From NCBI GenBank assembly GCA_024689425.1, contig JAILDN010000004.1, positions 12,464 through 76,463 on the forward strand: DNA of 64,000 nt, written 5' to 3'. Below, piece after piece: positions 565-50,016 of the stretch (position 1 is its first letter; each line of letters starts with the position of its first letter). The position numbers and the translations under genes were made by a program. This stretch comes from Methanobrevibacter sp. GTDB lineage: Archaea > Methanobacteriota > Methanobacteria > Methanobacteriales > Methanobacteriaceae. The notes beneath the pieces are model-generated. The model searched no databases. It saw nothing but the letters and a program-made list of their open reading frames with translations, and was not told where the DNA came from.

Positions 565-583
565 TTACTTATCAAATGCTCTT
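565..583 (+). promoter_or_regulatory. Dispersed 19-bp motif, copy A (TTACTTATCAAATGCTCTT), upstream of nrdD
   Basis: Identical (19/19) to the reverse complement of 49998-50016; also matches 12123-12141 and 27031-27049. Function is inferred, not known. Confidence 0.6.
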
Positions 584-638
584 GGACAACTCTAAATTAT
601 TTAATAAACACAACTAAATATTACATAATAAAGAAAAT

Positions 639-662
639 ATTGTTCGCATAAATACGAACAAT
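639..662. promoter_or_regulatory. Inverted repeat ATTGTTCG-N8-CGAACAAT (core TTCGCA-TAAA-TACGAA), candidate MsvR-type operator
   Basis: Perfect 8-bp arms immediately 5' of a TATA-like TTTATAC (664-670) upstream of nrdD. Confidence 0.5.
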
Positions 663-705
663 GTTTATACAAGTACTGACTAATATTATAATCAAGTGAT
701 TAGTA

Positions 706-721
706 GATAGGGTACCCTATC
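706..721. promoter_or_regulatory. Perfect 16-bp palindrome GATAGGGTACCCTATC in the nrdD leader
   Basis: Read directly. Unusually GC-rich for this intergenic DNA, and flanked by a further GATTAG (698-703)/CTAATC (731-736) pair. Confidence 0.5.
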
Positions 722-765
722 AATCTTATTCTAATCGAATTAAATAATGGAAAATGGTGTGTTAA

Positions 766-3084
766 ATGGAAAAAACTACAGAAATCGCAAATAGTTTAAA
801 TAAATCCGTTAAAATAAACGTAGAAAAAAATAACGGAATTACAGAAAGATTCAGTTATGAAAAGTTATTAAAATCATTAATAATGGTTGAAACCCCATTC
901 TTTGAATCTGATAAAATTGTAGCTACAGTTGTATCATCATTATATGATGGAATAACTACAAAGGAAATTAAAAAAATAGTTTACGAATGTTTAGAAGATA
1001 TTGACGGTGAAATTGCAAACAAATACTTAGCAAGCACCCAGTTAAAAGTACGTACTTCAAGAGATACAATTGAAGCATTTGACTTATCTAAAATTGCAAA
1101 TACTTTAATTCAGGAAACTGGTGCTAGCCAAGAAACTGCTTTTGAAATTGCAACTGAAACCTGGAAAGAACTCAAAAAATTAAATGTTGAATACTTAACC
1201 GCTCCAATGATTAGGGAAATGGTTAACACTAAACTTATTGAATACGGATTAGAAGACTTAAGAAGCCGTTACACTCGTTTAGGTATTCCAGTTTATAACA
1301 TTACCTCTTTAATCGAAAATGGTAACAGAGATAATGCAAATATGATTCACAACCCGGAAAGTATCCATAAACATGTAGCAGACGAAGCATTAAAACAATA
1401 TGCGTTACTTAAAATGCTTCCAGCAAGATTAGCTGACGCACACATGTCCGGGGACATTCACATTCACGATTTGGAATTCTTCGCAGGAAGACCTTTAAAC
1501 TGTATGCAACATGATATCAGAACTTTCATCAAATACGGTCTTAAAGTAGACGGTACAGGTGACCACACCTCCATTGCAGGAGCACCAAACCACATGGAAA
1601 CTTTAATGAACCACACTGGTGAAATCATGCTTGCAGCTCAACAAAACATGTCCGGAGGACAAGGAATGTCCCTTTGGAATGTATTTGTAGCTCCATTTGC
1701 AAGAGGAAGAACTTACGATGAAATTAAACAATCCGTTCAAATGCTTATTTACAACTTAAACATGGCTTACGCAGCCCGTGGATCCCAAGTACCGTTCACA
1801 AGTATGGCACTGGAATTCGGAGTTCCAAACTTCTTGAAAGAAGAAACCGCATACGGACCAAAAGGTCAAGTGGTTGGAACTTACGCTGACTTTGAAAAAG
1901 AAACCAGATTAATTCAAAGAGCATTCACTGAAACTTTACTTGAAGGTGACAATGAAGGAAAACCTCATTTATTCCCAAATACTATCTACACCTTACGTGA
2001 AGAAACAATGACCAGTGAATACGAAGAAGATATCCGTTTAGTTCACGAATTGTCTGCAAAATACGGTTCATCCTACTTTGTAAACATGTTGGCTGATTAC
2101 AGAGGAGACATGGCTAACTACATGGGATGCAGAACCTGTTTACAAGACAACTGGACTGGTGACTGGGATCAAGATTGTTTAAGAACCGGTAACCTTGCAT
2201 ACGTAACTTTAAACCTTCCTAGAATAGGTTACCAATCCAAAGATGAATCCCAAGTATTCGAATACTTAGATGAATACATGGATTTAGCTACTGAAACTTT
2301 AATGCTCAGAAGAGAACAAGGTTTAAAATGTTTAAATGATTTCCACATTTTACCATTCTTGAAACAAAGAGTAGCTGAAGATTCATACTACAGAATACAA
2401 AATTCAACCTTATCATTCGGTTTCGTTGGACTTAACGAAATGTTATTATCATTATTCGGTGAAGGTATTGAAAACCCAGATGCAAACAAATTCGGTATCA
2501 AATGTCTTGAATACATAAATGAAAGAGCAAATCAATTGAAAGATGAAACTGGACTCAGATGGTCTGTTTTACAAACCCCTGCTGAATCCACTGCTTACAG
2601 ATTTGCAACTCTCGATAAAAAACAATTCGGAGACCAAGCTATCGTACAAGGAGACAGCAATGCTAACTACTACACAAACTCTTCTCACGTACCGGTAGAT
2701 ACCAATGCATCATTAATTGAAAAGATCAAAATAGAAGAACAATACCACCCATTAACTCCTGGTGGACACATCTTCCATGCATTCATGGGTGAATCATACT
2801 CTGATCCTGACTCATTAATGAGCTTAACAAATAAAATTGCAAGAAAATCCAATATCGGATTCTGGGCTTACAGCTCAGCTTTAAGTTTCTGTCTTAAATG
2901 TAAAACCTTAATGAAAGGATTAAATAATACTTGTCCTACTTGTGGTGAAAGCGAAGATGTAGAATGGTACGACAGAATCACTGGTTATGTACAACAAGTT
3001 GGTCGTGCAAAATCCGCATCCGGTGGTTGGAACCCAGGTAAACGTCAAGAATTAATTGATAGAAGAAGATTTGAAGATAACTAA
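766..3084 (+). CDS. nrdD: Anaerobic (class III) ribonucleoside-triphosphate reductase with two N-terminal ATP-cone domains
   Basis: HIHDLEF, finger-loop YMGCRT, PAESTAYRFA, YYTNSSH, C-terminal CxxC..CxxC and glycyl-radical motif DRITGY. Confidence 0.96.
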   Translation: MEKTTEIANSLNKSVKINVEKNNGITERFSYEKLLKSLIMVETPFFESDKIVATVVSSLYDGITTKEIKKIVYECLEDIDGEIANKYLASTQLKVRTSRDTIEAFDLSKIANTLIQETGASQETAFEIATETWKELKKLNVEYLTAPMIREMVNTKLIEYGLEDLRSRYTRLGIPVYNITSLIENGNRDNANMIHNPESIHKHVADEALKQYALLKMLPARLADAHMSGDIHIHDLEFFAGRPLNCMQHDIRTFIKYGLKVDGTGDHTSIAGAPNHMETLMNHTGEIMLAAQQNMSGGQGMSLWNVFVAPFARGRTYDEIKQSVQMLIYNLNMAYAARGSQVPFTSMALEFGVPNFLKEETAYGPKGQVVGTYADFEKETRLIQRAFTETLLEGDNEGKPHLFPNTIYTLREETMTSEYEEDIRLVHELSAKYGSSYFVNMLADYRGDMANYMGCRTCLQDNWTGDWDQDCLRTGNLAYVTLNLPRIGYQSKDESQVFEYLDEYMDLATETLMLRREQGLKCLNDFHILPFLKQRVAEDSYYRIQNSTLSFGFVGLNEMLLSLFGEGIENPDANKFGIKCLEYINERANQLKDETGLRWSVLQTPAESTAYRFATLDKKQFGDQAIVQGDSNANYYTNSSHVPVDTNASLIEKIKIEEQYHPLTPGGHIFHAFMGESYSDPDSLMSLTNKIARKSNIGFWAYSSALSFCLKCKTLMKGLNNTCPTCGESEDVEWYDRITGYVQQVGRAKSASGGWNPGKRQELIDRRRFEDN

Positions 3085-3321
3085 ATATAGTTATCTTCTA
3101 CACACTATTTTTTTTAAAACATATCTGTCATCACTAAAATATCTTAAAAAACTAAAAGTATATTAATATCTTCAAAGATAAATTATACTATTATCATATC
3201 ACTGATGATAAAATTATTTTCATACACTATGTTACTAGTATTTATGGGCTTTTTTGATACTAGGTAGCTGATAACATAGTTTTAATTAATACCCAGTGCA
3301 TTAACAAATCGAGGTAATAGA

Positions 3322-3612
3322 ATGCAAAGATCAAGAGGATTTAAGAGTAGATCAAGAAAAAAAATGACAAAAGTTGAAAGAAAAGGAAGAACTAATCCTA
3401 TTACAAACAGACTCCAAAAATTTGAAGAAGGAGATTTAGTTCACATTATTATTAATCCAAGTATTCAAAAAGGTCAACCACACCCAAGATTCCATGGTAA
3501 AACTGGAAAAGTTATTGGAACCAAAGGTAAAGCTTACTTAATTGCTTTAAAAGAAGGAAACAAAGCAAAAGAATTAATTGTTAGACCTGACCACTTAAAA
3601 TTACAAAACTGA
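3322..3612 (+). CDS. rpl21e: 50S ribosomal protein L21e
   Basis: [30 protein letters not shown] and VRPDHL motifs; GAGGT ribosome-binding site. Confidence 0.97.
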
Positions 3613-3617
3613 TTTAA

Positions 3618-3962
3618 ATGATTGGTAAAAACGTGCTTAAAAAAGAAGAAATTCCTGGAGTTGAAGTTAAAGAAGCAATTGAGGAATTTTCTGAAGAATA
3701 TGAATTAAATTACGAGCAAAATGTAACTTTAAATCATCTTGCAAGATTCCCAAGATACTCCTGTGAAGACGCAGAAAAAATTATTGCGGAACTTGAAGAA
3801 AAAGTTGGCTTAAGACGTAAAGTTGCAGTACATATCGTTGATTTAATACCACAAGATTTATCTGATTTAAGATTAATTTTTGCAAAAGAACCAATGCAAG
3901 TCGATAAAGACAAAATGCAAGATATTTTAGATATCTTAGACCAATACCCAATTGATGAATAG
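3618..3962 (+). CDS. rpoF: RNA polymerase subunit F (Rpo4)
   Basis: LNYEQ..L.HL..F and VHIVDLIPQDLSDLRLIF; usual position after rpl21e. Confidence 0.9.
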   Translation: MIGKNVLKKEEIPGVEVKEAIEEFSEEYELNYEQNVTLNHLARFPRYSCEDAEKIIAELEEKVGLRRKVAVHIVDLIPQDLSDLRLIFAKEPMQVDKDKMQDILDILDQYPIDE

Positions 3963-3990
3963 TTTTTAACTATTCTATTTTAACTTTTTT
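3957..3990 (+). terminator. Hairpin GAATAGTT-TTT-AACTATTC with T-rich tail, overlapping the rpoF stop codon
   Basis: 8-bp inverted repeat 3957-3975 followed by T-runs. Confidence 0.55.
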
Positions 3991-4066
3991 TTAAACACCA
4001 TTTTTTAGATATATTTATTACCAAAAAACATTAAATTTAATAATATATTTATTAATAAATAGTGAA

Positions 4067-4714
4067 GTGATAAATATGGATAAAAAAAATAATAAAAGAA
4101 AAAACCCACCTCAAAAAACTGAAGACAATGCAGTCATATTAGATTATCTTAGTTTAGGTTATGTCCAATCTGACATGTCAAAGTTTAAAGGTAAAGCTAT
4201 TGCTCAAGCTATTGGTACCGATCATTTCACTTTACTAGAATTAGCACCGAAAAATGGTGTTGATTTAGAAATTCAAGACACAGTATATATTGGAAAAGGA
4301 AAAAGAGACAAAATTTATAGAGTCTTAGGAAAACTTGATTTTGAAAATTTAACCGCTACAAGTAGAATAGAACTTGAATATGCAATTAAAGACATTATTA
4401 TATCAAGAGAAGATGAATTCGTTGAATTTTTCAATAATGCAGGTCCTGTCAACACAAGATTACATCAATTAGAATTAATCCCAGGAATTGGTAAAAAATA
4501 CATGTGGGAAATCATCGAAGAACGTGAAAAGAAACCATTTGAAAGTTTCGAAGAGATATCAGAAAGAGTCCCATCATTATCTGATCCTGTTGGAATGCTT
4601 GTTAATCGTGTAAAACAAGAATTGGATACAACTACCGTTAAGAAAGGTAAGCAAAAATATTATTTATTCACTCCAATTCCTAGAAGTGCTTTAAACAGGA
4701 ATAAAAGAAGATAA
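4067..4714 (+). CDS. DUF655 family putative nucleic-acid-binding protein (HhH); likely ATG start 4076
   Basis: AQAIGTDHFTLLEL and TRLHQLELIPGIGKK; conserved neighbour of rpoF and ksgA in archaea. Confidence 0.88.
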   Translation: MINMDKKNNKRKNPPQKTEDNAVILDYLSLGYVQSDMSKFKGKAIAQAIGTDHFTLLELAPKNGVDLEIQDTVYIGKGKRDKIYRVLGKLDFENLTATSRIELEYAIKDIIISREDEFVEFFNNAGPVNTRLHQLELIPGIGKKYMWEIIEEREKKPFESFEEISERVPSLSDPVGMLVNRVKQELDTTTVKKGKQKYYLFTPIPRSALNRNKRR

Positions 4715-4722
4715 GTGATAAC

Positions 4723-7226: not shown

Positions 7227-8510
7227 TTATTTTAAATGATCAGGAATAATTTGATGAGCAAATAAATCTTCAAATGTTTGTTTTTCACGAACAAGTTGAC
7301 ATTCACCATCAGTTACTAAAACTTCAGAAGCCAATGGTCTTGAATTATAATTTGAAGACATTGTGAACCCATATGCACCGGCATTTAATATTCCTAAGAT
7401 ATCTCCTTCTTCTACCTCAGGCATTGGTCTGTCACGTGCAAACAAATCTCCGGATTCACATACGTTACCTGCAATATCTACTTCTTGAGTATTAGGAGCA
7501 TCCATTTTACTTGCATCTACAATATGATGATATGAATCATACATTGCTGGCCTTAAAAGAGTGTGGAAACCTGCGTCTACACCTATGAATTTTCTGTAAC
7601 TTTGTTTTACACTGTTTACAGTTACTAAAAGTACGCTTGCATCTCCAACCAAGTATCTTCCAGGTTCAAGATACATTGTAGGTGAACCCATGTCATATTC
7701 TTCCAATTTCTCTTTAAATAATCCTACATTTACTTGTGCAAATTTATCCAAGTCAACAATGTTTTCTTCAGGAGTGTATGGAATACCTACACCACCACCG
7801 AAATCAACAAATTCAAAGTCGATACCAGTTTCTTGGTGTACTTTTCCTGCAATATCCATTGTTGATTCAATAGCCAATTTGAACGGTTCCGGGTCCAAGA
7901 TTCCTGAACCGATGTGGGAGTGCATACCGATAGGAGTAAATCCTAATTCTTTAGCCTTTTCATATACTTCAACTGCTTCATTATCCATTATACCAAATTT
8001 ACTCATTACTCCACCAGTAATACAGTGATCGTGATGTCCTGCTCCAACCATAGGATTGACTCTAAATGAAATTTTCATTCCTTCAGGATCAACCATTTTA
8101 GCTAATCTGTGAAGGGCAGAAACTGAATCTATGTTTAAGACTGCGCCTTCATCGGCTACGAATTTTAATTCTTCATTGGTAATGTTATTACCTGTAAACA
8201 TGATTCTTTTTCCTTCAAAACCTAATTTTTTTGCAGTGTATACTTCACCAGGTGAAACCGCATCAATACAGCAGCCTTCACTTTCTAAAATTTTCATTAC
8301 AGCCAGGTTGGTATTAGCTTTACATGCATAAAATACTTTAAAATCAGGATAGTATTTGGAAAATGCACTGTAAAACCTATTATAATTATCTCTTATCCTA
8401 TTTTCATCAATAACATAGGTTGGAGTTCCAAATTCTTCTGCAATATCTACTGCGTCTGCACCACCAATATCCAAGTGGTTATTATCATTGACTTTAATAT
8501 TTAAATCCAT
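7227..8510 (-). CDS. lysA: Diaminopimelate decarboxylase
   Basis: YACKAN (PLP lysine), [35 protein letters not shown]. Confidence 0.97.
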
Positions 8511-10710: not shown

Positions 10711-10900
10711 TTTTTTTGAACCTCTCCGGCTTAAAGAAGCCGGAGATTCTTAGGCCATGCCTATTGTTTCGTCAAAACATTTCCATTCATAATGATATAA
10801 GAATTTGCCTTGACCAATAGGCATGAAATCTACTAAGCATAGCACCGTTGAACCAGCGGCGCGTAGACCTTCGTCTAAAATATTTTTTGCAGCATTAACA
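10696..10900 (-). ncRNA. Predicted TnpB omega/reRNA: tnpB 3' end plus right end, with a flank-derived guide (AAAAACUAUCUUUCUUCAAU); 5' boundary approximate
   Basis: Inferred from established TnpB biology and the TCAA end at 10716; the scaffold was not folded computationally. Confidence 0.5.
10723..10746. repeat. Right-end subterminal hairpin TCTCCGGCTT-AAAG-AAGCCGGAGA
   Basis: Perfect 10-bp stem at the foot of the tnpB stop codon. Confidence 0.9.
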
Positions 10901-12018
10901 TCCCTTTGAAGAATGCTATGGCAGTGCGGACATTCCCACACCCTTTCATCACAATCTAAGTCATGGTTGATTTCTCCACAGACATTGCACTTTTTGCTCG
11001 ATGGAAACCACCGATCGATTTGTATAAATTCACGGCCATACCATTGGGCTTTGTATTTTATCATTTCTATGAGTTTGCCCCATCCAATTTCATGTATGCT
11101 TCTGCTTAAATTGCGGGAACGTATCATTCCTCGGATGTTTAATGTTTCCATGGCTATGAATTCGCAGTGTTTGACTATGTTGTAGGATATTTTATGGTAA
11201 TAATCAAGAACTACGTTGTTTTTCTTGTTTATCCATCGGTGGAGTTTTTTGAGTGTTTTTTTCCAGTTGGATCCATTCTTTTTTTGTCGGGCTATTTTTT
11301 GCTGGTAGTATTGTATTCTTCCGTTTATTCTTTTCAAGTCAGGTTTAGGTATGACTTTGCCATTGGAAAAGGTTAGGAAGTCTGTTAGTCCGACATCTAT
11401 GCCTACATATAATCCAGAGTTCTTGAATTCTTCTCTTGGTTGTATTTTTTCTAGTTCGTAGACTATGCATATGAACCAGCGTCCATTTTCTTTTATGATG
11501 GTGGCTTCCTTGATTTTTCCATCAATGTCTCTTTTATATTTGACTTTGATGTATCCGAGTTTATTTAAGCGGAACAGGTTTTCTTCCCATCTTAAAGTAC
11601 TTTTCATACCTTCTTTGGTAGAATATTCGTTGTTTCTCAATGTAATGGAGATTACGGGATTCTTTTTTAGTGATTTGAAATGTGGACGTCCAGTTCTATT
11701 ATCATAGAATCCGTTGTAGGCTTTTATCAAGCGGTCAGTAGAGGCTTGAAGACATGTGGATTCAGCATTTTTAAGGAATGGTTTTTGTTTTTTAAGGTTT
11801 TTTAATATTTTTTGTGTGTATATGCGATCTACTTCCGATTCTGTGCATATTCCAAGCTTGACTAGGTTTTCACGGTAAATACTTACTTCCAATGTTTTGT
11901 TGAAAACATAACCTGTGGCACGGAAATTGAAATTCAATTCCCCTTCTAAATCCTTATCAGGGAAAAATTCAATTTTATCAGTCAAAATAAAAGTTTTTCC
12001 ACACATAAAAAAACACAC
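10750..12018 (-). CDS. tnpB: TnpB RNA-guided endonuclease (start GTG 12018 or ATG 12006)
   Basis: RuvC-I GIDVG, RuvC-II AMETL, zinc finger SSKKCNVCG..WECPHC, RuvC-III RDVNAAKNI; P.FKS motif. Confidence 0.95.
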   Translation of the reverse strand: MCFFMCGKTFILTDKIEFFPDKDLEGELNFNFRATGYVFNKTLEVSIYRENLVKLGICTESEVDRIYTQKILKNLKKQKPFLKNAESTCLQASTDRLIKAYNGFYDNRTGRPHFKSLKKNPVISITLRNNEYSTKEGMKSTLRWEENLFRLNKLGYIKVKYKRDIDGKIKEATIIKENGRWFICIVYELEKIQPREEFKNSGLYVGIDVGLTDFLTFSNGKVIPKPDLKRINGRIQYYQQKIARQKKNGSNWKKTLKKLHRWINKKNNVVLDYYHKISYNIVKHCEFIAMETLNIRGMIRSRNLSRSIHEIGWGKLIEMIKYKAQWYGREFIQIDRWFPSSKKCNVCGEINHDLDCDERVWECPHCHSILQRDVNAAKNILDEGLRAAGSTVLCLVDFMPIGQGKFLYHYEWKCFDETIGMA

Positions 12019-12122
12019 ACATCCTTTTATTATTATTATTTCATTTTTTTTTATAAGAACATTAAATTAACTACCATTCTTATAAATAAAAATTAATAAG
12101 ATAATATATAAAGAAATTATCC

Positions 12123-12141
12123 AAGAGCATTTGAAAAGTAA
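12123..12141 (-). promoter_or_regulatory. Dispersed 19-bp motif, copy B (18/19), inside the IS upstream of tnpB
   Basis: Minus strand TTACTTTTCAAATGCTCTT, then 10 nt, then TTTATATA. Confidence 0.6.
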
Positions 12142-12193
12142 TATTTAAATAAAAACTAAAAAAAATATTCGAATGTCCTTAAAGTGCAATTCA

Positions 12194-12217
12194 TCTCTGG
12201 CTTAAAGAAGCCAGAGA
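12194..12217. repeat. Left-end subterminal hairpin TCTCTGGCTT-AAAG-AAGCCAGAGA with outer GTGCAA/TTGCAC stem
   Basis: Differs from the right-end hairpin by one compensatory C-G to T-A pair; outer arms at 12184-12189 and 12222-12227. Confidence 0.9.
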
Positions 12218-12348: not shown

Positions 12349-13179
12349 ATGGAATTTATAAGAGAAAGTGAAGTTATTCAATGGAAAAACGGAGAATACA
12401 AAACAATTAAAGAAAATAGTGTAGAGGATGAGTATACATATTTGTTTATTGATTATTTGCCCCCACGTAAATTCTCAACATACCCCAAAGATTTGAAAGA
12501 CTTTGCTATAGGATACTGTCTGGGTGAAGGCTTAATTAAAGATTATTCTGACATTGAATCAATAGAATGTGATGGAACAAATGTTTTGGTTAGCACAAAA
12601 CTTAGCCATGACCCTGAAGAAGATTTGGAGCAGGACGGAATAGTTCAGGAGCGAAAAGGCAATTGTGAACATGCCTGTGTCTGCAGATTGCTTGAATATC
12701 AGGGTGTGAACTCAGATAATGCAGGAGGCATAAGATCAGAACTCAAAAGCATTGAAAAAAATACCTCTGACTTAAAAATAGACGCAACCCAAATTATTAA
12801 AGACATTGAACACCTGACTGATGAAGCAAAAATATGGCAAAAAACCGCAGGAGTCCATGTTGCACAATTGAAATATGAAGACAATACAATCATCCGTGAA
12901 GATGTAAGCAGACACGTTGCAGTAGACAAAGTGATTGGAGCAGCATCAAAAGAAGGATATGACTTTTCCAAATGTTATATTTCATACAGTGGGAGAATGC
13001 CTGCTGATATGCTGATAAAAGTAATCAGAGTTGGAATTCCAATAATTATCTCAAATGCGGCACCGGCATCATCAGGTATTGATGTAGCTAACGCAGGAAA
13101 TATTACCATAATCGGATTTGTCCGAGACAACAGATTTACAGTCTACACATCTCCAGAACGTGTAAACTTGGAAAAATAG
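12349..13179 (+). CDS. fdhD: Formate dehydrogenase accessory sulfurtransferase FdhD
   Basis: TAGVHVA, REDVSRHVAVDKVIG, SGRMPADMLIK, TIIGFVR. Confidence 0.9.
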   Translation: MEFIRESEVIQWKNGEYKTIKENSVEDEYTYLFIDYLPPRKFSTYPKDLKDFAIGYCLGEGLIKDYSDIESIECDGTNVLVSTKLSHDPEEDLEQDGIVQERKGNCEHACVCRLLEYQGVNSDNAGGIRSELKSIEKNTSDLKIDATQIIKDIEHLTDEAKIWQKTAGVHVAQLKYEDNTIIREDVSRHVAVDKVIGAASKEGYDFSKCYISYSGRMPADMLIKVIRVGIPIIISNAAPASSGIDVANAGNITIIGFVRDNRFTVYTSPERVNLEK

Positions 13180-15549: not shown

Positions 15550-16452
15550 TTATTTTAATTTATTCATCAAACCTGATTTTCTGGCATAATGAAACATATA
15601 TAACTGAACGTAACCTGCATAATCGCCAAATTCTTCCATTCCAAATTCCCTGACTTTTTCAACTTTAATATCCTTTCCATCAAAGTACAAATAAGAAACA
15701 ATGCGCTTAATCCAGACATCACTTGGAAAAGCTTCCCTAAATCCAAAACCATATAGTAAAATACAATCAGCTACCTTAGGGCCGACACCCGGAACTTTTA
15801 AAATCGTTTCAAAAGCTTCATCATAAGACATTTTCCCAATATCCGAAAGGTCCATTTCAAGTGAAAAAATTTCGCTTGCCTTGCGCATATATAGTGCCCT
15901 ATAACCAACTCCACAGGCTTTTAAATTATTATCTTTCATTGCATTTGTTTTTAAATGCTCTTCTTCCTCATCCAAAAATATATCATTGAATGTTTCACAA
16001 TCAGGAAATGAATAAAAATTATTGAAATTACGACCCCATTTAAATTTCATATCGCTAATAGACTTTGTCCATCGCTTAATTGAATTATTTGCAGAGCAAA
16101 TTGAAGATATCAAACATTCAAAAGAGTCTTTAGCTTGGAATAACCTTAAACCTTTACAAAACTTTGACATTTCACTAAGTTCTGCCTGGTTATCAAGATA
16201 ATCATAAAATTTCAACAAATCAAAGTCCAAATCATAGATTTTTTTAACATTTTCAATAGCTTGATTTTGAGTTATATTTCCACTGTAATTAAAATCTAAA
16301 TATTTGCCATTTTGAGATACATTAAAAATAGAATATTCTCCATCAATACAAACTAAATCACTGTAAACTCCATTTTCACAAATCCATGGAGGCTGTGAAG
16401 TCTGACCTGAAATTTGGGTTAATTCCAAATCAATTGGTGAATCGATAATCAT
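15550..16452 (-). CDS. 8-oxoguanine DNA glycosylase (Ogg1-like, HhH-GPD)
   Basis: [52 protein letters not shown]. Confidence 0.85.
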
Positions 16453-23773: not shown

Positions 23774-24094
23774 ATGATTATGGAATTTTGCCCAAATTGT
23801 GGAGCAATGTTACTTCCAAACGATGATAAACTCAAATGTAATAGTTGTGGATACATAAAAGATTTAGCTTCAAACGATGAACAATACTCCGTTTCACAGA
23901 AATTAAATGAAAATAAAGGTGTTGTTAATTTAGGTGAAGCTGAAGATATGAGATCACAAACTACTGAAATTTGTCCAGAGTGCGGTCATGATAAAGCTTA
24001 TTCTGAAATTAAACAAACCCGTAGTGCAGACGAAGCACCAACAAGAATCTTTGAATGTGCCAAATGTGGCCATAAATGGAGAAATTACAATTAA
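23774..24094 (+). CDS. tfs: Transcription factor S (TFS)
   Basis: Two zinc ribbons and acidic hairpin QTRSADE. Confidence 0.94.
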   Translation: MIMEFCPNCGAMLLPNDDKLKCNSCGYIKDLASNDEQYSVSQKLNENKGVVNLGEAEDMRSQTTEICPECGHDKAYSEIKQTRSADEAPTRIFECAKCGHKWRNYN

Positions 24095-24105
24095 GAGGAA
24101 AATTT

Positions 24106-25074
24106 ATGAAAGATTCTAAAAAAGAACATAGGATTTCTAATTTAAAAAATATGATTAATCATGTTAACGATGATGAAATCAATGAAATAGAAATTAATAC
24201 TGACAATGAAGAAATCCAAGAAGATGAAGAATTAATTAATTATTTAAATGAAAATAATGATTCATTTGAAATAGATGATGAATACATTTATCGTCCTGGA
24301 GAAGATAATCCTCATGCAATAAACTTAGAAGATGCTGAAATTGATAAAAATTTTATTATCGAAGCAGATATTAACGAAGATTTAAACGAAAAGTCAGAAA
24401 TCATCAAACCTGATGGCCTCGAAGAAGAAGTAAATGAAAACTTTGATAATTTAATTAATATTAAAATAGGTGAAAAACCTATATTGGCCTTTGTAAGTTT
24501 AATTCTTGGAATCATATTTATAATTGCCTCAATAATAGTCTTTAATGCAAGAACAGACAGAATAATCGATAATGTTGTTTCTGGTGAAAATCAGTTTATA
24601 ATGGTAGTTTTAATACTTATTGGAGTATTATTAATTATCTATGCCTTATTCAAAATTTTCAATATTAAAAGTCCATTTGAAAACATGATGGAATCCATCA
24701 GTGAAGTTGAAGAAGAAAAAGAAAGTCTAAAGAAAGTTGAGGATGAAGAACAAGTCCTTCCTAAAAGTAACATCCCTCTCGACAAAGAATCCTACAAAAT
24801 TGGGGAGTTCAACATGGAAGAACTCAAAAATAACCTAAAAAGCTCTTTTTCCAAAACCGTAGATAAAACCAAAAAAACACCAAAAAAAGAAACCACCACT
24901 GAAGAAATAAATGTTGAAGACTTACCTTCTGCACGTGAAAAATCTGATGATAAAAAAGGTCTTATTAAAGAAGAAATTGAAGAAATAGATTACGAAAAAG
25001 CAAAACTTGAAGGCGAAAGTATTGATGAAATTTTTGCTGAAGTTGAAGACCTACCTGATGATAAAAATAATTAA
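24106..25074 (+). CDS. Hypothetical acidic protein with two central transmembrane helices
   Basis: GAGG RBS; E/D/N-rich termini; hydrophobic ILAFVSLILGIIFIIASIIVF and FIMVVLILIGVLLIIYALF. Confidence 0.75.
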   Translation: MKDSKKEHRISNLKNMINHVNDDEINEIEINTDNEEIQEDEELINYLNENNDSFEIDDEYIYRPGEDNPHAINLEDAEIDKNFIIEADINEDLNEKSEIIKPDGLEEEVNENFDNLINIKIGEKPILAFVSLILGIIFIIASIIVFNARTDRIIDNVVSGENQFIMVVLILIGVLLIIYALFKIFNIKSPFENMMESISEVEEEKESLKKVEDEEQVLPKSNIPLDKESYKIGEFNMEELKNNLKSSFSKTVDKTKKTPKKETTTEEINVEDLPSAREKSDDKKGLIKEEIEEIDYEKAKLEGESIDEIFAEVEDLPDDKNN

Positions 25075-25084
25075 ATTTAATTTT

Positions 25085-25158
25085 GGGCCTGTGGTCTAGT
25101 CAGGAATGACACAGGACTTCGGATCCTGAAATCGGGGGTTCAAATCCCTCCAGGTCCG
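25085..25158 (+). tRNA. tRNA-Arg (anticodon TCG), no intron, CCA not encoded
   Basis: Acceptor GGGCCTG/CAGGTCC, anticodon stem CAGGA/TCCTG with loop CTTCGGA, T-loop GTTCAAATC. Confidence 0.95.
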
Positions 25159-25160
25159 TT

Positions 25161-26990
25161 TTATTTTTTAACTCTCACAACTGCTTCTTTAAAGAAATCA
25201 GGTACTAAAAATTTATAGATTGGACTTTTAAGTATCATATTTATATCCGCATCTAAAATGTAAGTATAACAATAATCATCTTCAGCACGCATTCCCCTAC
25301 CATATGCCTGCATTAATGTCATTACTGTTTTATATGCATACCATTTTTGGTCGGTTTTCCTTCTCATATTAATTTGTTTATCTCCAAGATATGGGAATGG
25401 TATTTTATAGATTACTTGAAATCTACACTTATCATAGGGTAAATCAACCCCTTCACTCATTGAAGGAGAAACTAAAACAAGCGGATTTTCATCTTTTTCA
25501 AAATAATCCAACATCTGCTCCCTATTAGCGGAATTATGAGAAATCAACCTTGAGTTATGTAAATTATCATTGATGAAATGCTGACATTTATAACTATTGG
25601 TGTGAATTAATCCTTTTTCATCTTTATGTTTTTCAAGTATTTCTTTTAATATAGGGATTGTTTTAGGAGCGGTTTTATTAACCCTGCTTTTAGACATTTT
25701 TCCCGCTAAATTTAAAATTATAGGCCTTTTTTCTTTTGTAAATGGGCTATCAACTTTAATATGATAAACTTCTTCTGGAGATAAACCTAACCATTTTGAG
25801 AACAAATTACTGGATAAAATCGTTGCACTCATGAAAATAACAACATCCCCATATTTGAGTAAGCTATTTTGAGCATAATGATGAACTCTCAATGGTTTAA
25901 ATGATACACCTGCTTCATTAGTGTCAATGACCCAATTTTCAGGTTCTTTTTCCAGATTATTCTTAAGTGTTTTGAGTCTTGAAATGGTTGAATGGATTCT
26001 TTCTGCCTTATTTTTTGATAAATCCTTAATGTCAATGTCTTCATAAGCTTCCCCAATAGCTGCAATTTCCATGAGCCAATCTTCTAATTCCCCATCTTTT
26101 AAAGTTTCTTTAGATATTACTTTACTAATGTCTTTTTCTAAACGGTGATTATATAAATTTACTTCCATCGTGTTCATTAATTTGGATTCTATATTATGCG
26201 CTTCGTCTAAAATAAGTAATGAGCGAGTTCCAAAATGTTTTACATAATTTAACTCTGCAATAGCATAATCATAATTCATTAATGTGATGGGGGAGTTTAT
26301 TGCATTTGCTTTTTGATTCCAATAATGACAATGAGAATGAGATTGATAAAACACCGCTCCACCGAAAGAATCTTCAAAAGCCAATTCAGCATCCAATGTT
26401 GGATTTTTAGCAACACCATAAGGGCAAAAAAATTTGCTGGAAGTCGGAGAGGTTTTACAAGTTCCCATATCACAAGTAACATCCAATCCATCGTTTAAAC
26501 ATGAGAAATTAGATCTTCCTTTAACTAACGGAAATTCAAATTCATCACAGTATTGGGACTGTAATTGTTTTGTCATAGTTAAAATATAAGCAGATTCATA
26601 CATTTTAGCTAATGTTGTAGCAATTGCGGACTTACCGGTCCCAGTTCCTGCTTCTAAAATAATATATTTATATCCTTTTCTAATTGCATCATGAATATCC
26701 TGAATAATCTCAAACTGACCTACTCTAGGCTCGTCAAATGGAAAATTTTCAATGATTTCATCATCAATATGGGGGTACTCATCCTTTAGTTCAAGGAACC
26801 TATTTACTTGCATTTTATGGTCTTCAATAGAATAAGACTCTTGAATCTCATCATCCAAAATAGACTTTGTAATAGGCTTTGAAAATGAAAATAGATTAGT
26901 AGAACCCTCATTTTCAAAAGATTCCTTATTTTTACAAATACAATTGCTTTTAAGCATACCACAATTTGGACAAAACATAGAATTTGACAT
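25161..26990 (-). CDS. XPD/DinG-family SF2 helicase with N-terminal Cys4 motif; likely start 26990
   Basis: FPFDEPRVGQ (Q motif), EAGTGTGKS, Cys-rich Fe-S-like region, LDEAHN, EGVDLP, QAYGRGMR. Confidence 0.88.
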   Translation of the reverse strand: MSNSMFCPNCGMLKSNCICKNKESFENEGSTNLFSFSKPITKSILDDEIQESYSIEDHKMQVNRFLELKDEYPHIDDEIIENFPFDEPRVGQFEIIQDIHDAIRKGYKYIILEAGTGTGKSAIATTLAKMYESAYILTMTKQLQSQYCDEFEFPLVKGRSNFSCLNDGLDVTCDMGTCKTSPTSSKFFCPYGVAKNPTLDAELAFEDSFGGAVFYQSHSHCHYWNQKANAINSPITLMNYDYAIAELNYVKHFGTRSLLILDEAHNIESKLMNTMEVNLYNHRLEKDISKVISKETLKDGELEDWLMEIAAIGEAYEDIDIKDLSKNKAERIHSTISRLKTLKNNLEKEPENWVIDTNEAGVSFKPLRVHHYAQNSLLKYGDVVIFMSATILSSNLFSKWLGLSPEEVYHIKVDSPFTKEKRPIILNLAGKMSKSRVNKTAPKTIPILKEILEKHKDEKGLIHTNSYKCQHFINDNLHNSRLISHNSANREQMLDYFEKDENPLVLVSPSMSEGVDLPYDKCRFQVIYKIPFPYLGDKQINMRRKTDQKWYAYKTVMTLMQAYGRGMRAEDDYCYTYILDADINMILKSPIYKFLVPDFFKEAVVRVKK

Positions 26991-27030: not shown

Positions 27031-27049
27031 AAGAGCATTTGATAACAAA
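27031..27049 (-). promoter_or_regulatory. Dispersed 19-bp motif, copy C (17/19), upstream of the helicase
   Basis: Minus strand TTTGTTATCAAATGCTCTT, then 10 nt, then TTTATA. Confidence 0.6.
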
Positions 27050-27066
27050 TATTTAAAAGTGATTAT

Positions 27067-27768
27067 ATGTCAGAAAGAGGAAAATTATTCGGAATTGGTG
27101 TAGGACCAGGAGATACAGAATTATTAACATTGAAAGCTGCTAGAATTTTAGAAACAGTCCCTGTTGTTTTTTCACCAAAATCTTCCAAAGAAAAAGAGAG
27201 TATTGCACTTTCAATAGTAAAACCAATAATTGAAAAAAGAAAAGATTTTAAAAAGTTAATGGTTGTAGAACCGATATTTCCAATGATTGAAGATGAAAAA
27301 GAATTAGAAAGATGTTGGACATCTGCTTCAGAAATGATTGCACAATATCTCGATACCGGACGTGACGTGGCATTTATAACTCTTGGAGATCCATCAATAT
27401 TTAGTACTTACTCTTATGTGCAAAAGAAATTAAAAGGAGCATATGAAATTGAAACTGTTCCTGGAATAACTTCATTTACAGCTTGTGCAGCTGCTCGTAA
27501 CGAAGCGTTAGTTGAAAAAAATGATATTTTAAGCATTATCCCTAAAATTGATGACAGATTAGATGATGTTATGGATTACAGTAATGCAATAGCTTTAATG
27601 AAAGCATCAAGAAATATGAGAAAATTAGAACTAAAAATTGAAAACAACAAACGTACAACCGACATTTATTCAGTGCAAAACTGTACTCGTGAAAATGAGA
27701 AAATTATTGAAGGATTTTCAAAAGATAAGCCTTATCTTACAACCACAATTATTAAGTTAGATGATTAA
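27067..27768 (+). CDS. cobI: Precorrin-2/cobalt-factor II C20-methyltransferase
   Basis: GIGVGPGDTELLTLKA, FITLGDPSIFSTY, VPGITSF. Confidence 0.9.
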   Translation: MSERGKLFGIGVGPGDTELLTLKAARILETVPVVFSPKSSKEKESIALSIVKPIIEKRKDFKKLMVVEPIFPMIEDEKELERCWTSASEMIAQYLDTGRDVAFITLGDPSIFSTYSYVQKKLKGAYEIETVPGITSFTACAAARNEALVEKNDILSIIPKIDDRLDDVMDYSNAIALMKASRNMRKLELKIENNKRTTDIYSVQNCTRENEKIIEGFSKDKPYLTTTIIKLDD

Positions 27769-28535
27769 TTTGATTTGAAGCGCCGTGGTTCAACTTCAAA
27801 AACACATTTTCCATCACCCATAGTATAGCATTGGATTTCTATTACACTTACTGGCTGGTTGAAGTATTCGCTGAATAATGCTTCAAGAATTCCAGTATCT
27901 AAAAAACATGCAGGTTTACCTGTTTTTGGTAATAATTGACATTCGAAACAGTCTAAAGAAGTTATTTTTATTACGCTTCCTATTTCAAATGAAAGTTTGC
28001 CTAGGCCTTTTGTTTGCCAGAAATTTGAAATGTTTTCTAAAAATATCTCTAAATCATCATCATAAACAGAATCAAATAAAGCATTGCCAATGCGTACACC
28101 GGTAGCTTGTAAAACAGGATCAATATTAATTCCTTCCTGAATAAGCATTGATCTTAATGTGTGGAACAATAAAACAGTGAAATCTCCATCATCATTAACG
28201 ATATTTTCAATTAAATAATCCTTTTGAGTCTCTTCAATTTCTTTTTGCTCAGAAAGATTTACAGAACCCAAATATTTGGAGTTGAGATAGAAAATTTTTT
28301 TTCTATTGTCTTTAGGATGAACTTTAAAAGAAACAATACCTGATTCCCTCAAACCTTTCAAATGAACAGAAATAGTAGATTTTGATTTACCTGTGTTAGA
28401 AACAATTTCATCAAATTCCATCTCACTACCCCTAAGCATTTCAAGAATAGTTAACTTTACTGGACTTTTTACAACATTTACTCCAATATTTTTTTCTGGA
28501 TTTGAAAAAATTTGAATTGGTTTTTCGTCACCCAT
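27765..28535 (-). CDS. msvR: ArsR-type HTH plus V4R-domain redox regulator (MsvR-like)
   Basis: N-terminal wHTH (KSKSTISVHLKGL); V4R domain with Cys cluster DCFEC..PACF..QCY..KC; divergent from fprA as established for MsvR. Confidence 0.8.
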   Translation of the reverse strand: MGDEKPIQIFSNPEKNIGVNVVKSPVKLTILEMLRGSEMEFDEIVSNTGKSKSTISVHLKGLRESGIVSFKVHPKDNRKKIFYLNSKYLGSVNLSEQKEIEETQKDYLIENIVNDDGDFTVLLFHTLRSMLIQEGINIDPVLQATGVRIGNALFDSVYDDDLEIFLENISNFWQTKGLGKLSFEIGSVIKITSLDCFECQLLPKTGKPACFLDTGILEALFSEYFNQPVSVIEIQCYTMGDGKCVFEVEPRRFKSN

Positions 28536-46289: not shown

Positions 46290-46341
46290 TAAAAAAAAGT
46301 AGTTATTAATATTATTTAAAATTTGAGATTAAAAGAAAGAA

Positions 46342-46364
46342 AATCGTGAAAATAATTCACGATT
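46342..46364 (-). terminator. Hairpin AATCGTGAA-N5-TTCACGATT overlapping the radA stop
   Basis: 9-bp inverted repeat followed by a T-rich tract on the minus strand. Confidence 0.6.
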
Positions 46365-47298
46365 AATCAACAATACCATCATTAGTAATTTTGAAAACGC
46401 ATTCACCTTCAGGCAAATGAGGGCTGTCTACCAAACGAGCAATTCTTTTTCCAGCAAGTCCTTTTTTAAGCCAAATTCTGTAAGTGGATGCGTGTCCTAA
46501 AACGTGACCACCAATAGCTTTAGTTGGACTTCCAAAGAAGGAATCTGGTTTAGCTTGAACTTGGTTTGTAATAAATACCGCTACATTGTAAGTATTAGCA
46601 ATTTGTTGAAGTGAATGTAAGTGTTGATTTAATTTTTGTTGTCTAACAGCCAATGATTCTCTTCCAACATATTCTGCTCTGAAATGAGCCATTAATGAAT
46701 CTACGATAACTAATTTAACATTAGTTCCAGATTGAATAAGTTCGTTAATTTTATCAACCATTAGAATTTGATGAGATGAGTTAAAAGCACGAGCAACATG
46801 AATTTTTTGTAAAACTTCTTGAACATCTAATTCAAAACCGTTGGCAATTTGTTCAACTCTTTCAGGACGGAAAGTATTTTCAGTATCAATGAAAACACAT
46901 TCACCACCAAGTCCACCTTGTTCTACAGGTAATTGAACAGTTACTGCTAATTCATGAGAAATTTGACTTTTTCCAGATCCAAACTCCCCAAATACTTCAG
47001 TGATTGCTTGAGTTTCAATACCTCCAGCGATTAAATCATTGAAACCTTTACTTCCAACAGAAATGTGGCCAACTTCTTTTCTTCTTTCCAAAACATCAAA
47101 TGCTGTTTCAAAATCAATATTTTCAGCTTTACGTGCAGCTTCAATAACTTTTTCAGCAACACCTTCACCGATTTCTGCTTTAACTGATAATTCTTTAGGA
47201 GTAGCAGTGGCTAATCTCATCATATCAGCAAATCCTGCATCTCTTAATTTTTCTGCTGTTTTTTCACCAACACTAGGTAAATCTTCTAATTCTACCAT
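46363..47298 (-). CDS. radA: DNA repair and recombination protein RadA
   Basis: [44 protein letters not shown]; no intein. Confidence 0.97.
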
Positions 47299-47319
47299 AA
47301 TAATCCATCCTTATTTAAT

Positions 47320-49935
47320 TTAATAATATTTATTTAAAATTTTCCTTGGGTTAAGTCTAATTCTATCGTTATACTCATCATAACTAACATTAGCAATTAC
47401 TTCAACATTTAAACCTTCCAAATCTTCGATTTTACCATCCAAAATACCTGGATCTTCAGAAACTAATTCAACAATTTCATCTTTAGGCATTTCTAGAAGT
47501 TCTTCAACTAAATTATCAAAGAAAGTAAGTCCAATCTCGCCAGTGTCATCCACTAATGTAGTTGGAATCATGATTGTGACATTTGGATCTTCGATTTCTT
47601 CACCACAATAATCACAAATGACTGAATCTTCAAAAGAGTCATTACTAATTGTATTATTACAGTTTGGACATTTTCTAAGAAGTAAATGATCACTGACTAC
47701 ATCAGTTAATTGACCTGTAACACGAACATTAACATCATTATCCTCAATAGCTTCGATTTCTTTAGGAGCATAAATAGCTTCTCTAAGCTCTTCATAAGAA
47801 GGTAATTTCATTAATTCATCTTCACTTGGTTTTACAATAGCTGATGAACCTGATATATTCAATGTTAATTGGTCATTATAGATATCGACTCTAGGATTTT
47901 GAATCTTGATTGGTTCGCCAAGTTCAAATTCTCTTTTTGCATTGTCTCCCCATAATGATACTCTAATAGCTTGTGAATTATCGGCAATTTCAATATTTCT
48001 CAATGAATATTTACTACCATCATCTCTTTCTAATTCACGTACATCAAACACTTCAAAGACTCTTCCGACAACATAAATATTTTCTTCAAATTCCTCTACT
48101 TCAGAAATTTCACGATATTCATAAATCATTTTTTCTAATGATTCGAATGAAGGAAGGAATTTGGCATCTTCTTCAGATAATTTAATTATTCTTGATGATG
48201 AACCAATATTTAAATTAATATTTTCCATTCCAAATCTTACTCTTGCATTTTCTATTAAATAAGCTTCTGAGACTTGGAGAGGAATTTCAGATTTATCATC
48301 CCATAAAGATAATTGAACAATTCCACTACCATCGGAGAATAATGCGGAACGTACATGACCTGTACTTCCATCAGAAGGTCTTTCAAAAGTCCTAACATCT
48401 CCTACAGACATTATTCTTCCCATGACATCAGCATCAAAATTATCTTCTTCAGCTAAGGTCACTTGTTCAAGTGTAATTGGCTGTAATGTTTGCTTAATTG
48501 ATTCAAAAATTTCTAAATCATCATCAGACAAGTTTTTAGGATTAATTGTTATTTGAGTGGAGAAATTAGTATTGATAGAATGGCCTTCTTCAACATATTC
48601 ATCATAAATAACATTTCCACCAATTAATTTAACGATATCCCCTTTGTTAATATCTAAACCGGCAGCGTCACCCCATAAAGTAACTCTGATTGAATTGGTA
48701 TCGTCGGTTAAATGGAAGTTTCTCAATTGACCTTCACTTTGGTCTGATTTTCTGACGAATTTTTTAATATCTTGAATTTTGGTTACAACACCCATTATTG
48801 CCACATCGGTGTCACCATCATCCAAATCATCGATTTTTGAAAACTCATGCACAAATTCAGGAACATCGTAATCTCCTTTAATAATCCTTCCATCCCAATG
48901 GCTAAGAGATTTTTCGTCATTTCTTTCTCTAACTTGGGCTTGAAGGATTTTTACTGTGTCACCATCGTTTAAATCAAGAGATTCTATTAAATCAACATTC
49001 TTATTCCATAATGTGTAAGAAATAGTGCCTGATTCATCTTGAAGTTCAAGAGATGCTACTTGACCCTCTTTACCATTTTTATTATAAGATCTAATTGGAG
49101 GAATTTTAATGATTCTTGCAATCACATTTACTTTGGTATCTGGTTGAACATCTTTAATTTGAGTAATTTCTTCAATATATTCTGGATATTTACTAGGGTC
49201 AGCATCTGTAACTTTTTTAAATACAGATCTAGGCCTCATTGTTGCTTCAAGTCCTGAAAATCCATCTTTAATGTCAACACCTTCAACTCTTACAATATCT
49301 CCTTCTGAAATATTTTTTAGGTGTTTAATATTTTCAGTCCATAATACAACACGGATTTTTCCGGTGTTATCCTCAACATCCACATTACAGACTTTTCCTG
49401 TTTTATTTTTGCGTGTTGTAAAAGACCTTGGATTGCTTATTGACATTACTCTACCAGTGAAAGATTGGTCATTATCTCCATTTTCAAGTAAACCAATATT
49501 ATTTTTTGCTGAATATTCTTCTCTTTCAGTTAAAGATTCATTTTCTTGAGTAATGCCTAATTCACCAATGATTTGATCAACAATACTTTCCTCATTAATG
49601 AATGGATTATCTTTCTGTTGAATTTTAATTTCATTAATTCTTGAAAGGAAATCCTCTTGAGAAATATAATCTTTCACTTTTTCATATTTTTCTAAAAGTA
49701 AATCACTCATGACAATTTCGTCATCATTTAATTCTTCTTGCTCTTCTCTTGAGAGATCATGTGATAGCATATCGTCAACAACTAAATAACTATCAACAAC
49801 TTTTGCTGCGATATCTACTTCATCATAATCTGAATCAACATAATCTGGACGAATTTCATCCATTTTAGATAAAAATTCTTCTTCAGAGAGTTTATCTTTA
49901 ACTTTTTCGTATTGTTCTAAAATTTCTTTTTCCAT
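47320..49935 (-). CDS. rpa: Replication protein A (multi-OB-fold ssDNA-binding protein, C-terminal zinc finger)
   Basis: About five repeats of the D.SG.I..TLW OB motif; CPNC..CDYC; upstream of radA. Confidence 0.9.
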   Translation of the reverse strand: MEKEILEQYEKVKDKLSEEEFLSKMDEIRPDYVDSDYDEVDIAAKVVDSYLVVDDMLSHDLSREEQEELNDDEIVMSDLLLEKYEKVKDYISQEDFLSRINEIKIQQKDNPFINEESIVDQIIGELGITQENESLTEREEYSAKNNIGLLENGDNDQSFTGRVMSISNPRSFTTRKNKTGKVCNVDVEDNTGKIRVVLWTENIKHLKNISEGDIVRVEGVDIKDGFSGLEATMRPRSVFKKVTDADPSKYPEYIEEITQIKDVQPDTKVNVIARIIKIPPIRSYNKNGKEGQVASLELQDESGTISYTLWNKNVDLIESLDLNDGDTVKILQAQVRERNDEKSLSHWDGRIIKGDYDVPEFVHEFSKIDDLDDGDTDVAIMGVVTKIQDIKKFVRKSDQSEGQLRNFHLTDDTNSIRVTLWGDAAGLDINKGDIVKLIGGNVIYDEYVEEGHSINTNFSTQITINPKNLSDDDLEIFESIKQTLQPITLEQVTLAEEDNFDADVMGRIMSVGDVRTFERPSDGSTGHVRSALFSDGSGIVQLSLWDDKSEIPLQVSEAYLIENARVRFGMENINLNIGSSSRIIKLSEEDAKFLPSFESLEKMIYEYREISEVEEFEENIYVVGRVFEVFDVRELERDDGSKYSLRNIEIADNSQAIRVSLWGDNAKREFELGEPIKIQNPRVDIYNDQLTLNISGSSAIVKPSEDELMKLPSYEELREAIYAPKEIEAIEDNDVNVRVTGQLTDVVSDHLLLRKCPNCNNTISNDSFEDSVICDYCGEEIEDPNVTIMIPTTLVDDTGEIGLTFFDNLVEELLEMPKDEIVELVSEDPGILDGKIEDLEGLNVEVIANVSYDEYNDRIRLNPRKILNKYY

Positions 49936-49997
49936 ACCAAACCCCTCATTAGAAAGTTAATTATTATTTTAAATTATAGCATATATAAACTCTTAGA

Positions 49998-50016
49998 AAG
50001 AGCATTTGATAAGTAA
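49998..50016 (-). promoter_or_regulatory. Dispersed 19-bp motif, copy D (19/19), upstream of rpa-radA
   Basis: Minus strand TTACTTATCAAATGCTCTT, then 8 nt, then TTTATATA. Confidence 0.6.

Follow-up and report, generated by a model that had tools for sequence, protein, structure and literature searches.

Why should genes as different as those for an anaerobic ribonucleotide reductase (nrdD), a transposon-encoded RNA-guided nuclease (tnpB), an XPD/Rad3-like helicase and the RPA-RadA pair (rpa-radA) be preceded by the same short sequence? The question is raised by a 64,000-nt stretch of Methanobrevibacter sp. DNA (assembly GCA_024689425.1, contig JAILDN010000004.1, forward-strand positions 12,464 to 76,463; hereafter the window, with coordinates counted from its first letter). 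An earlier note had reported four copies of a 19-bp motif in it and proposed that they are bound by a regulator of single-stranded DNA, repair, replication-related and deoxyribonucleotide (dNTP) supply genes. From the sequence, position, conservation and downstream genes of the motif we infer that it is probably an upstream activating site (UAS) for an asymmetrically binding factor, and that it marks a regulon of recombination and fork repair. That part of the proposal was retained; replication was not, and dNTP supply was kept as a weak arm.

A search of the window for the 19-mer TTACTTATCAAATGCTCTT with up to two mismatches recovered exactly the four reported sites, against 0.14 expected from dinucleotide shuffles, and 0 of 100 shuffles reached four. 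Copies A (564–583, + strand) and D (49998–50017, −) both read ATTACTTATCAAATGCTCTT, with no mismatch to the 19-mer and a score of 28.1 bits in the weight matrix described below. Copy B (12123–12142, −; ATTACTTTTCAAATGCTCTT) had one mismatch and scored 30.8 bits, and copy C (27031–27050, −; ATTTGTTATCAAATGCTCTT) had two and scored 25.1 bits. The reported length needed a small correction, since the conserved block is a 20-mer, ATT[AT][CG]TT[AT]TCAAATGCTCTT in the window, made up of the 19-mer plus one preceding A at the 5′ end. When the four copies were aligned with 200-nt flanks, identity was found only inside this 20-mer.

All four copies are intergenic and point in the same direction as the next gene, as had been claimed, and Pfam agreed on the identity of those genes. 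Copy A precedes nrdD (766–3084, +), which encodes an anaerobic ribonucleotide reductase with an ATP-cone. Copy B precedes TnpB (10750–12018, −), with OrfB_IS605 and Cas12f1-like TNB domains. Copy C precedes the XPD/Rad3-like helicase (25161–26990, −), which combines an N-terminal Cys4 zinc ribbon with Helicase_C_2, DEAD_2 and ResIII domains. Copy D lies 62 nt 5′ of the ATG of rpa (47320–49935, −), encoding a multi-OB RPA of 871 aa, and rpa is followed by radA (46363–47298, −; Pfam) in the same operon (46363–49935). Copy C indeed stands between two divergent genes, one for the helicase and the other for a tetrapyrrole methylase (27067–27768, +), and the helicase probably starts at the ATG at 26990 rather than at the motif-internal ATG at 27038.

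Around 50 other annotated genes of the window (translation, cofactor, amino-acid and glycosyltransferase genes) had no copy, in agreement with the earlier statement that no other gene here is preceded by a full one, and the DNA-related 8-oxoguanine glycosylase gene and two NUDIX genes also lacked one; the annotation covered everything except part of the glycosyltransferase cluster at 53–62 kb. There was no halo of degenerate sites, as the 15-mer core with one to three mismatches gave 33 matches in the window vs 24.5 expected. The weight matrix found one extra, weaker match (15943–15962, +; 20.6 bits; ATTTGTTTTTAAATGCTCTT) with a mismatch in the core, antisense within the 8-oxoguanine DNA glycosylase open reading frame (ORF; 15550–16452, −), which is probably a chance match even though it falls inside a repair gene. 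Sites are rare in DNA of the family, and a window with four of them is unusually dense.

We scanned one genome per bacterial or archaeal species with the pattern ATTNNTTNTCAAATGCTCTT (exact matches, ...CTCTT required) and labelled comparison loci with L-numbers (e.g., L045). Among the matches listed, 39 of 118 came from Methanobrevibacter, Methanoflexus or unnamed Methanobacteriota metagenome-assembled genomes, and in the methanogen loci of that set a TATA box nearly always followed the motif. Many of the bacterial matches listed occupied the same orthologous position in related species with no TATA box after them, a pattern that suggests chance matches in coding sequence (coding status unchecked). 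A weight matrix was then built from 24 motif variants and applied to 0.95 Mb of family DNA with a cut-off of 16 bits. It returned 74 matches, 73 of them intergenic and nearly all pointing at a same-strand downstream ORF within ~350 nt. We therefore rejected a dispersed repeat, a miniature inverted-repeat transposable element (MITE) or an insertion sequence (IS) scar, the outcome that the earlier note had set against its own proposal: no homology extends past the 20-mer, near-matches in the window occur at chance levels, orientation is not random and all but one of the 74 matches lie in intergenic DNA.

The copies also hold a fixed place relative to the core promoter. The motif had been described as lying where archaeal activators bind, with a TTTATA box 8–10 nt after three copies, and both points were borne out. 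Copy D is followed after 8 nt by the TATA-type box TTTATATA (49989–49982), copy B after 10 nt by the same box (12112–12105) and copy C after 10 nt by TTTATAGT (27020–27013). Copy A has a weak AT-rich box, TAAATTAT, at 593–600, 9 nt after the motif. Across the family, 61 of 71 unique contexts had, no further than 30 nt from the motif, a box agreeing with TTTATATA in 6 or more of its 8 positions, and the spacing from the 3′ end of the motif to this box peaked sharply at 8 nt (27 of the 61 cases), with control positions flat. The block spans roughly −40 to −60, is asymmetric and strictly oriented, and abuts the transcription factor B (TFB) recognition element (BRE). A location directly 5′ of BRE/TATA with fixed orientation and spacing is one mark of a UAS, and the motif has it. 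In published cases, archaeal regulators activate from sites just upstream of BRE/TATA and repress from sites on or past TATA, and we favor activation because the motif lies where archaeal activators bind; an activator with a site upstream of the BRE is described in PMC6737238.

The family-wide 20-mer, A[AT]TA[CG]TT[CT]TCA[ACT]ATGCTCT[CT], would then be a cis-regulatory site directly 5′ of BRE/TATA, used in a single orientation, with a spacing of usually 8 nt between its 3′ end and TTTATATA. A factor would bind it asymmetrically, as a monomer or heterodimer, and once bound would help TFB and the TATA-binding protein (TBP) to load on the core promoter. Two other mechanisms start from the same geometry. 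One keeps the site and the regulon and makes the site the operator of a LexA-like repressor that blocks TFB/BRE access and is lifted after damage. A protein bound to a motif ending ~8 nt from TATA would overlap the BRE, copy C is only 17 nt from the divergent methylase start codon and could repress that gene, and provirus integrases preceded by the motif (see below) recall SOS-repressed prophage functions. However, characterized archaeal repressors mostly cover TATA/BRE or the transcription start site and not the region upstream, an asymmetric site in strict orientation to TATA suits positioned contact with the pre-initiation complex, and we know of no LexA-like logic in archaea, which together leave the repressor an unlikely though serious alternative. 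The second mechanism, in which a paralogue of a general factor (TFB or TBP) recognizes the block as an extension of the promoter, draws on the fixed orientation and 8-nt phase to TATA and on the role of the TFB paralogue TFB3 in the Sulfolobales damage response (PMC6061795). We consider it very improbable, since BRE contacts fall within ~7 nt of TATA whereas the block lies beyond the known TFB footprint, and TFB3 itself is without specific DNA binding.

The identity of the downstream genes points to recombination and repair. In the window and the matches listed, first downstream ORFs encoded RPA (two, including that of M. cuticularis), XPD-like helicases (four) and Hjc (two). Those among the matches listed further encoded ATPases with helix-hairpin-helix (HhH) and MutS_V domains (four; L023, L038, L057 and L104; ~650 aa), DUF763 proteins (three; L049, L092 and L100), Hef, Hel308, NurA, topoisomerase VI-B and UvrA, the last identified at 2e-32 to solved UvrA structures. 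Mobile-element targets in the window and the matches listed were TnpB (three), tyrosine integrase (three) and RhuM. Downstream of the motif we counted at least 11 different families of genes for DNA repair or recombination, and the check in relatives returned many different genes of this kind and not random ones. The helicase copy recurs before orthologues in L045, L079 and L103, making four genomes in all. One site stands before genes of related function but without homology and is kept at orthologous promoters, the nrdD site excepted, which is one mark of a regulon. We predict a small regulon of perhaps tens of promoters per genome, with rpa-radA, the XPD-like helicase, hef, hjc, hel308, nurA, uvrA, topoisomerase VI-B, the MutS-like ATPase and DUF763 as members and nrdD joining in this lineage only.

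DNA damage or replication stress would be the most likely trigger, because most of the targets serve recombination, the repair of stalled forks or excision repair. A real regulon might instead follow a cell- or replication-cycle signal, with periodic expression like that driven by eukaryotic MCB/E2F boxes, and the presence of constitutively needed genes among the targets (rpa, topoisomerase VI-B and, here, nrdD) is what such a signal would lead one to expect. Yet no core replisome gene (PolD, MCM, PCNA, primase or GINS) occurs among the ~25 distinct targets, PolD-DP2 lying upstream of copy A and not behind it. Enzymes of fork repair, recombination and nucleotide excision repair make up most of the set, and a stress signal would better account for the motif at integrase and tnpB promoters. 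We regard periodic control as possible but rather improbable.

The promoter of rpa provided the broadest view of conservation. We picked 46 metagenomic rpa loci by protein similarity alone, blind to the motif, and the upstream region could be examined in 44. A clear copy stood upstream of rpa in 30 of the 44, at ~83 nt from the rpa ATG in Methanobrevibacter loci and at 66–443 nt in Methanobacterium- and Methanothermobacter-type loci, while RPA identity across these loci ran from 73% down to ~41%. Variants at these promoters include ATTACTTGTCAAATGCTCTC, AATAGTTCTCACATGCTCTC and ATTACTTCTCAAAAGCTCGG. RadA cluster names assigned loci to Methanobrevibacter millerae, Methanobacterium subterraneum and Methanothermobacter sp. 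MT-2, and in all 33 metagenome loci with an identified radA homologue this gene came directly after rpa. In ~650 kb of DNA chosen for rpa only, all matches of at least 16 bits were those before rpa. Four metatranscriptomes held related sequence at 95–97% identity, in contigs that cover just the conserved radA region and no 5′ ends.

Copy B had been counted among co-regulated host promoters, a status it loses because it is an internal part of an IS element. The tnpB-only element of the IS605 family occupies 10716–12216 (−; ends approximate, the left boundary in particular), as defined by its hairpins and Pfam. Its left end (12216–12195, −) forms the hairpin CTCTGG-CTTCTTTAAG-CCAGAG, continued by ATGAATTGCAC to 12184. 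The right end (10745–10724, −) forms CTCCGG-CTTCTTTAAG-CCGGAG, continued by AGGTTCAA to 10716, with an identical loop. The order is left hairpin, motif B, TATA, tnpB (12018–10750) and right hairpin. A tnpB gene with similar subterminal hairpins marks members of the IS200/IS605 family, and this element has both; no tnpA was seen with it.

This arrangement is not confined to the window. Among five tnpB loci chosen by protein alone, four (three of four distinct elements; L291, L292 and L294/L295) carried the motif between the left-end hairpin and tnpB, scoring 27–32 bits at −98 to −142, and the fifth is without it because another transposon sits upstream. Hairpin, motif, TATA and tnpB follow in the same order in loci at 85% and 80% identity and in two loci of a second subfamily (39% identical). 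Methanobrevibacter elements of the IS605 family that are tnpB-only and have the motif and TATA as internal promoter are the window element, L027, L291, L292, L294 and L295. Two tnpB-less derivatives were also seen. At L056 (motif at ~7287–7306, −) a left-end hairpin and motif are followed by a structured region like the 3′/right end of tnpB elements. This looks like a tnpB-less mini-element whose 3′ part resembles the end of a tnpB transcript, and it might still express a guide-type RNA. At L040 a solo left end with the motif lies 247 nt before lonB.

Viral DNA carries the site as well. Eight AT-rich contigs in IMG/VR, putative Methanobrevibacter proviruses, contained the motif (L208, L238, L240, L262, L217, L286, L186 and L252). 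In seven of them a TATA-like box follows with the customary spacing, and in three of the eight the motif directly preceded a tyrosine integrase (PHROG 1). In L238 and L240 a second copy past the integrase points into the neighboring gene block. The architecture suggests that the host recombination regulon and the expression of TnpB are linked, and resident tnpB elements and provirus integrases may tap the same signal as host genes. Breaks made by TnpB are repaired by homologous recombination, and the excision of integrated elements is often damage-induced. Promoters of tnpB and integrase genes tuned to one signal would fit a damage trigger.

These observations could also be turned around, making the motif a promoter module of mobile elements (IS605 or provirus) and the host copies scars or domesticated remnants without common regulation. 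The motif is, after all, integral to tnpB elements of two subfamilies and to a tnpB-less mini-element, it occurs in viral contigs, and copy A is evolutionarily labile. The host copies, however, share no IS flanks (neither the left-end hairpin nor the ATGAATTGCAC box), the rpa copy stays ~83 nt before the start across Methanobrevibacter and is kept in Methanobacterium and Methanothermobacter, and random insertion would not be expected to yield functionally coherent targets. A mobile-module origin is in our judgment extremely unlikely and already largely refuted. An origin of copies A, C and D as IS ends was rejected separately, ATGAATTGCAC being found at copy B only.

Several findings weigh against reading the motif as the activating site of a repair regulon. 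The position upstream of the BRE is compatible with a repressor too. Some targets are unrelated to DNA or unclear, namely hemD (L055), an archaeal ATPase 339 nt away (L086) and lonB (L040), and there are several small ORFs of no assigned function. Five loci have no ORF downstream (L004, L044, L093, L111 and L118), and there was no clear copy in the Methanobacterium-type rpa loci L136, L146–L149, L151–L153 and L164. The PolD-DP2/nrdD spacers of M. woesei, M. arboriphilus, M. sp. DSM 116169 and the metagenome locus L170 lack the nrdD copy, and in the closest relative (L168/L169, with an NrdD that is 91% identical) its place is taken by a degenerate version, AATACTTTTTAATTGCTCTT, of 16 bits.

Conservation at orthologous promoters, then, holds for rpa across three genera and for the helicase and fails for nrdD. 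Copy A begins 8 nt past the stop codon of PolD-DP2 and lies 183 nt upstream of the nrdD ATG, in a gene order (PolD-DP2 followed by nrdD) that is conserved among the relatives compared. Judged from that comparison, copy A was added recently and in this lineage only, and it may belong to a second nrdD promoter further upstream. The core promoter of nrdD (640–671, +) contains a candidate operator, an inverted repeat TTGTTCG-N8-CGAACAA (640–661) that abuts the TATA box TTTATACA (664–671). In a comparison that left out the long L166 spacer, the repeat TGTTCGC-N6-8-GCGAACA next to a TATA-like box was clear in L165, L167 and L168/L169 and imperfect in L170. It may be the operator of an nrdD-specific regulator that is independent of the 20-mer, and nrdD appears to be under its own control because the repeat and TATA are conserved there and the 20-mer is not. 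The dNTP-supply arm of the regulon first proposed is weak for the same reasons. The nrdD 5′ leader also contains a perfect 16-bp palindrome, GATAGGGTACCCTATC, at 706–721, and hairpins of other sequence (GAGAGAAAACTCTCTC; AATTGAC-N9-GTCAATT) occupy the equivalent place in L165 and L168, so that this structure may be conserved by position and not by sequence.

What protein reads the motif? A search for recurrent neighbors at motif loci turned up a MarR gene (141–145 aa) transcribed away from rpa in a single Methanobacterium clade, where the motif lies in the spacer between the two genes (seven loci: L137, L140, L141, L145, L155, L160 and L162). In the Methanobrevibacter and Methanothermobacter loci examined, rpa had no MarR gene beside it, which makes it a weak regulator candidate, and an unrelated MarR gene was found 2.6 kb from the L086 site. 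We also considered the second Orc1/Cdc6 paralogue (Cdc6-2) of the Methanobacteriaceae as the reader, with the 20-mer as a diverged site resembling an origin recognition box (ORB). We hold this to be doubtful. A Walker-motif screen of the collected loci identified no Orc1/Cdc6-like ORF in 1.07 Mb of family DNA.

The ORB of Methanothermobacter probably reads TTACAGTTGAAAT; the comparison was made with the Pyrococcus ORB only. The P. furiosus ORB1 oligonucleotide reads TTCCAGTGGAAATGAAACTCTGGGGGG (PMC1904270). Aligned to it, the motif gives TTaCttTtcAAATG(---)CTCTtGG, with 9/14 matches plus CTCT and a frequent GG, and the two are alike in length and asymmetry. The central G of GGAAA in the ORB is nonetheless C in the motif, and ORBs are clustered and flank an AT-rich unwinding element beside orc1/cdc6, unlike the solitary, promoter-bound copies seen here. 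We rejected the motif as an actual ORB, since its copies are single, unclustered and at promoters, and take the resemblance, which is loose, as a lead. If Cdc6-2 were the reader, an Orc1-type master regulator of the damage or recombination response would be ancient and pan-archaeal and not a peculiarity of Sulfolobales, and tnpB transposons and proviruses would be timing nuclease and integrase expression by an Orc1-type protein.

Further identities were set aside at the level of the element itself. Rfam gave only a tRNA in the window (25085–25158) and none of its families at the motif sites. A terminator or RNA structure was rejected on folding z-scores of −2.05 (copy A, marginal), 0.26, 0.60 and −0.03, the last three no better than those of shuffled sequence, and on the lack of a shared structure, and a small ORF from the motif-internal ATG reaches just 13 codons in copy A.

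Around copy C, a conserved 332-aa ORF with no Pfam match (24076–25074, +) is convergent to the helicase gene, with tRNA-Arg(TCG) (25084–25159, +) between them, and a regulator gene with ArsR-type helix-turn-helix and V4R domains (27765–28535, −) lies two genes from the motif. At the five loci without a downstream ORF, the motif and TATA box stand just after the type I restriction-modification gene hsdM. In L044 and L093, the two that reach far enough, conserved non-coding DNA follows the motif, with no ORF for ~680 nt in L044, and this DNA may encode a non-coding RNA or be what is left of a gene. Uncharacterized targets that recur are DUF763, for which no solved structural relative was found, the MutS-like ATPase with N-terminal HhH, and small acidic or unassigned ORFs (L022/L043, L011 and L095).

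A coordinated transcriptional damage response in euryarchaea is a long-standing question, and the only archaeal damage regulator known to us is Orc1-2/TFB3 of Sulfolobales. Searching the literature by sequence string and by topic, we found no published account of the motif or of a methanogen DNA-repair regulon, and this would be the first candidate in this methanogen group. A regulon defined by a shared promoter site is a known concept; the sequence, lineage, architecture and presence in TnpB elements and proviruses appear new. The motif offers a concrete handle in methanogens, with a 20-bp bait, a defined promoter architecture and a predicted gene set, and Methanothermobacter, which has the motif, has an in vitro transcription system and genetic tools. 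It predicts DNA-repair roles for DUF763, the HhH-MutS-like ATPase and the small acidic proteins. It also suggests that TnpB transposons and Methanobrevibacter proviruses are wired into the host recombination regulon, which would bear on how homologous repair and TnpB homing are coupled and on how the proviruses of gut and rumen methanogens are induced.

Among known systems, the Sulfolobales damage response has in common with the motif an asymmetric archaeal promoter element shared by damage-response or repair genes, in a different phylum. Among its targets are ups pili, the Ced DNA-import system, tfb3 and cell-division genes, other genes than the RPA, RadA, Hjc, Hef and Hel308 targets found here. 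There, Orc1-2, a paralogue of Orc1/Cdc6 and an AAA+/winged-helix protein with monomer-type binding, acts with TFB3 and recognizes the DNA damage-responsive element (DDRE), ANTTTC, in damage-responsive promoters (PMC6061795, PMC9738581, PMC12490963). The DDRE core has 6 nt vs the 20-nt block here, and we rejected the motif as a DDRE because neither strand of the conserved core contains the hexamer (as defined in PMC9738581).

The bacterial SOS/LexA system is alike in that a short site is common to recA-type recombinase, uvrA and ssb-like genes and is exploited by mobile elements and prophages as well. The SOS box, a palindrome of the CTGT-N8-ACAG type, binds a dimeric repressor and overlaps the promoter, whereas the 20-mer has no dyad symmetry or hairpin, lies upstream of BRE/TATA and has no sequence similarity to it, and a LexA operator was rejected on these grounds; to our knowledge LexA does not occur in archaea. 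In mechanism the motif is more reminiscent of archaeal UASs, such as those of Ptr2 of M. jannaschii, GvpE, EarA, TFB-RF1 and TK0271/Tar (PMC6737238), which also lie directly upstream of BRE/TATA, depend on orientation and spacing and presumably recruit TFB/TBP. Those sites are unrelated in sequence and control metabolic, gas-vesicle and archaellum genes, none of them a DNA-repair regulon. A damage regulon driven by an activator from a site upstream of the core promoter does have counterparts in mycobacterial PafBC and Caulobacter DriD (PMC8635444, PMC12340889). Nothing seen here points to a WYL regulator; PafBC and DriD are WYL-domain proteins with bacterial, sigma-factor-dependent mechanisms.

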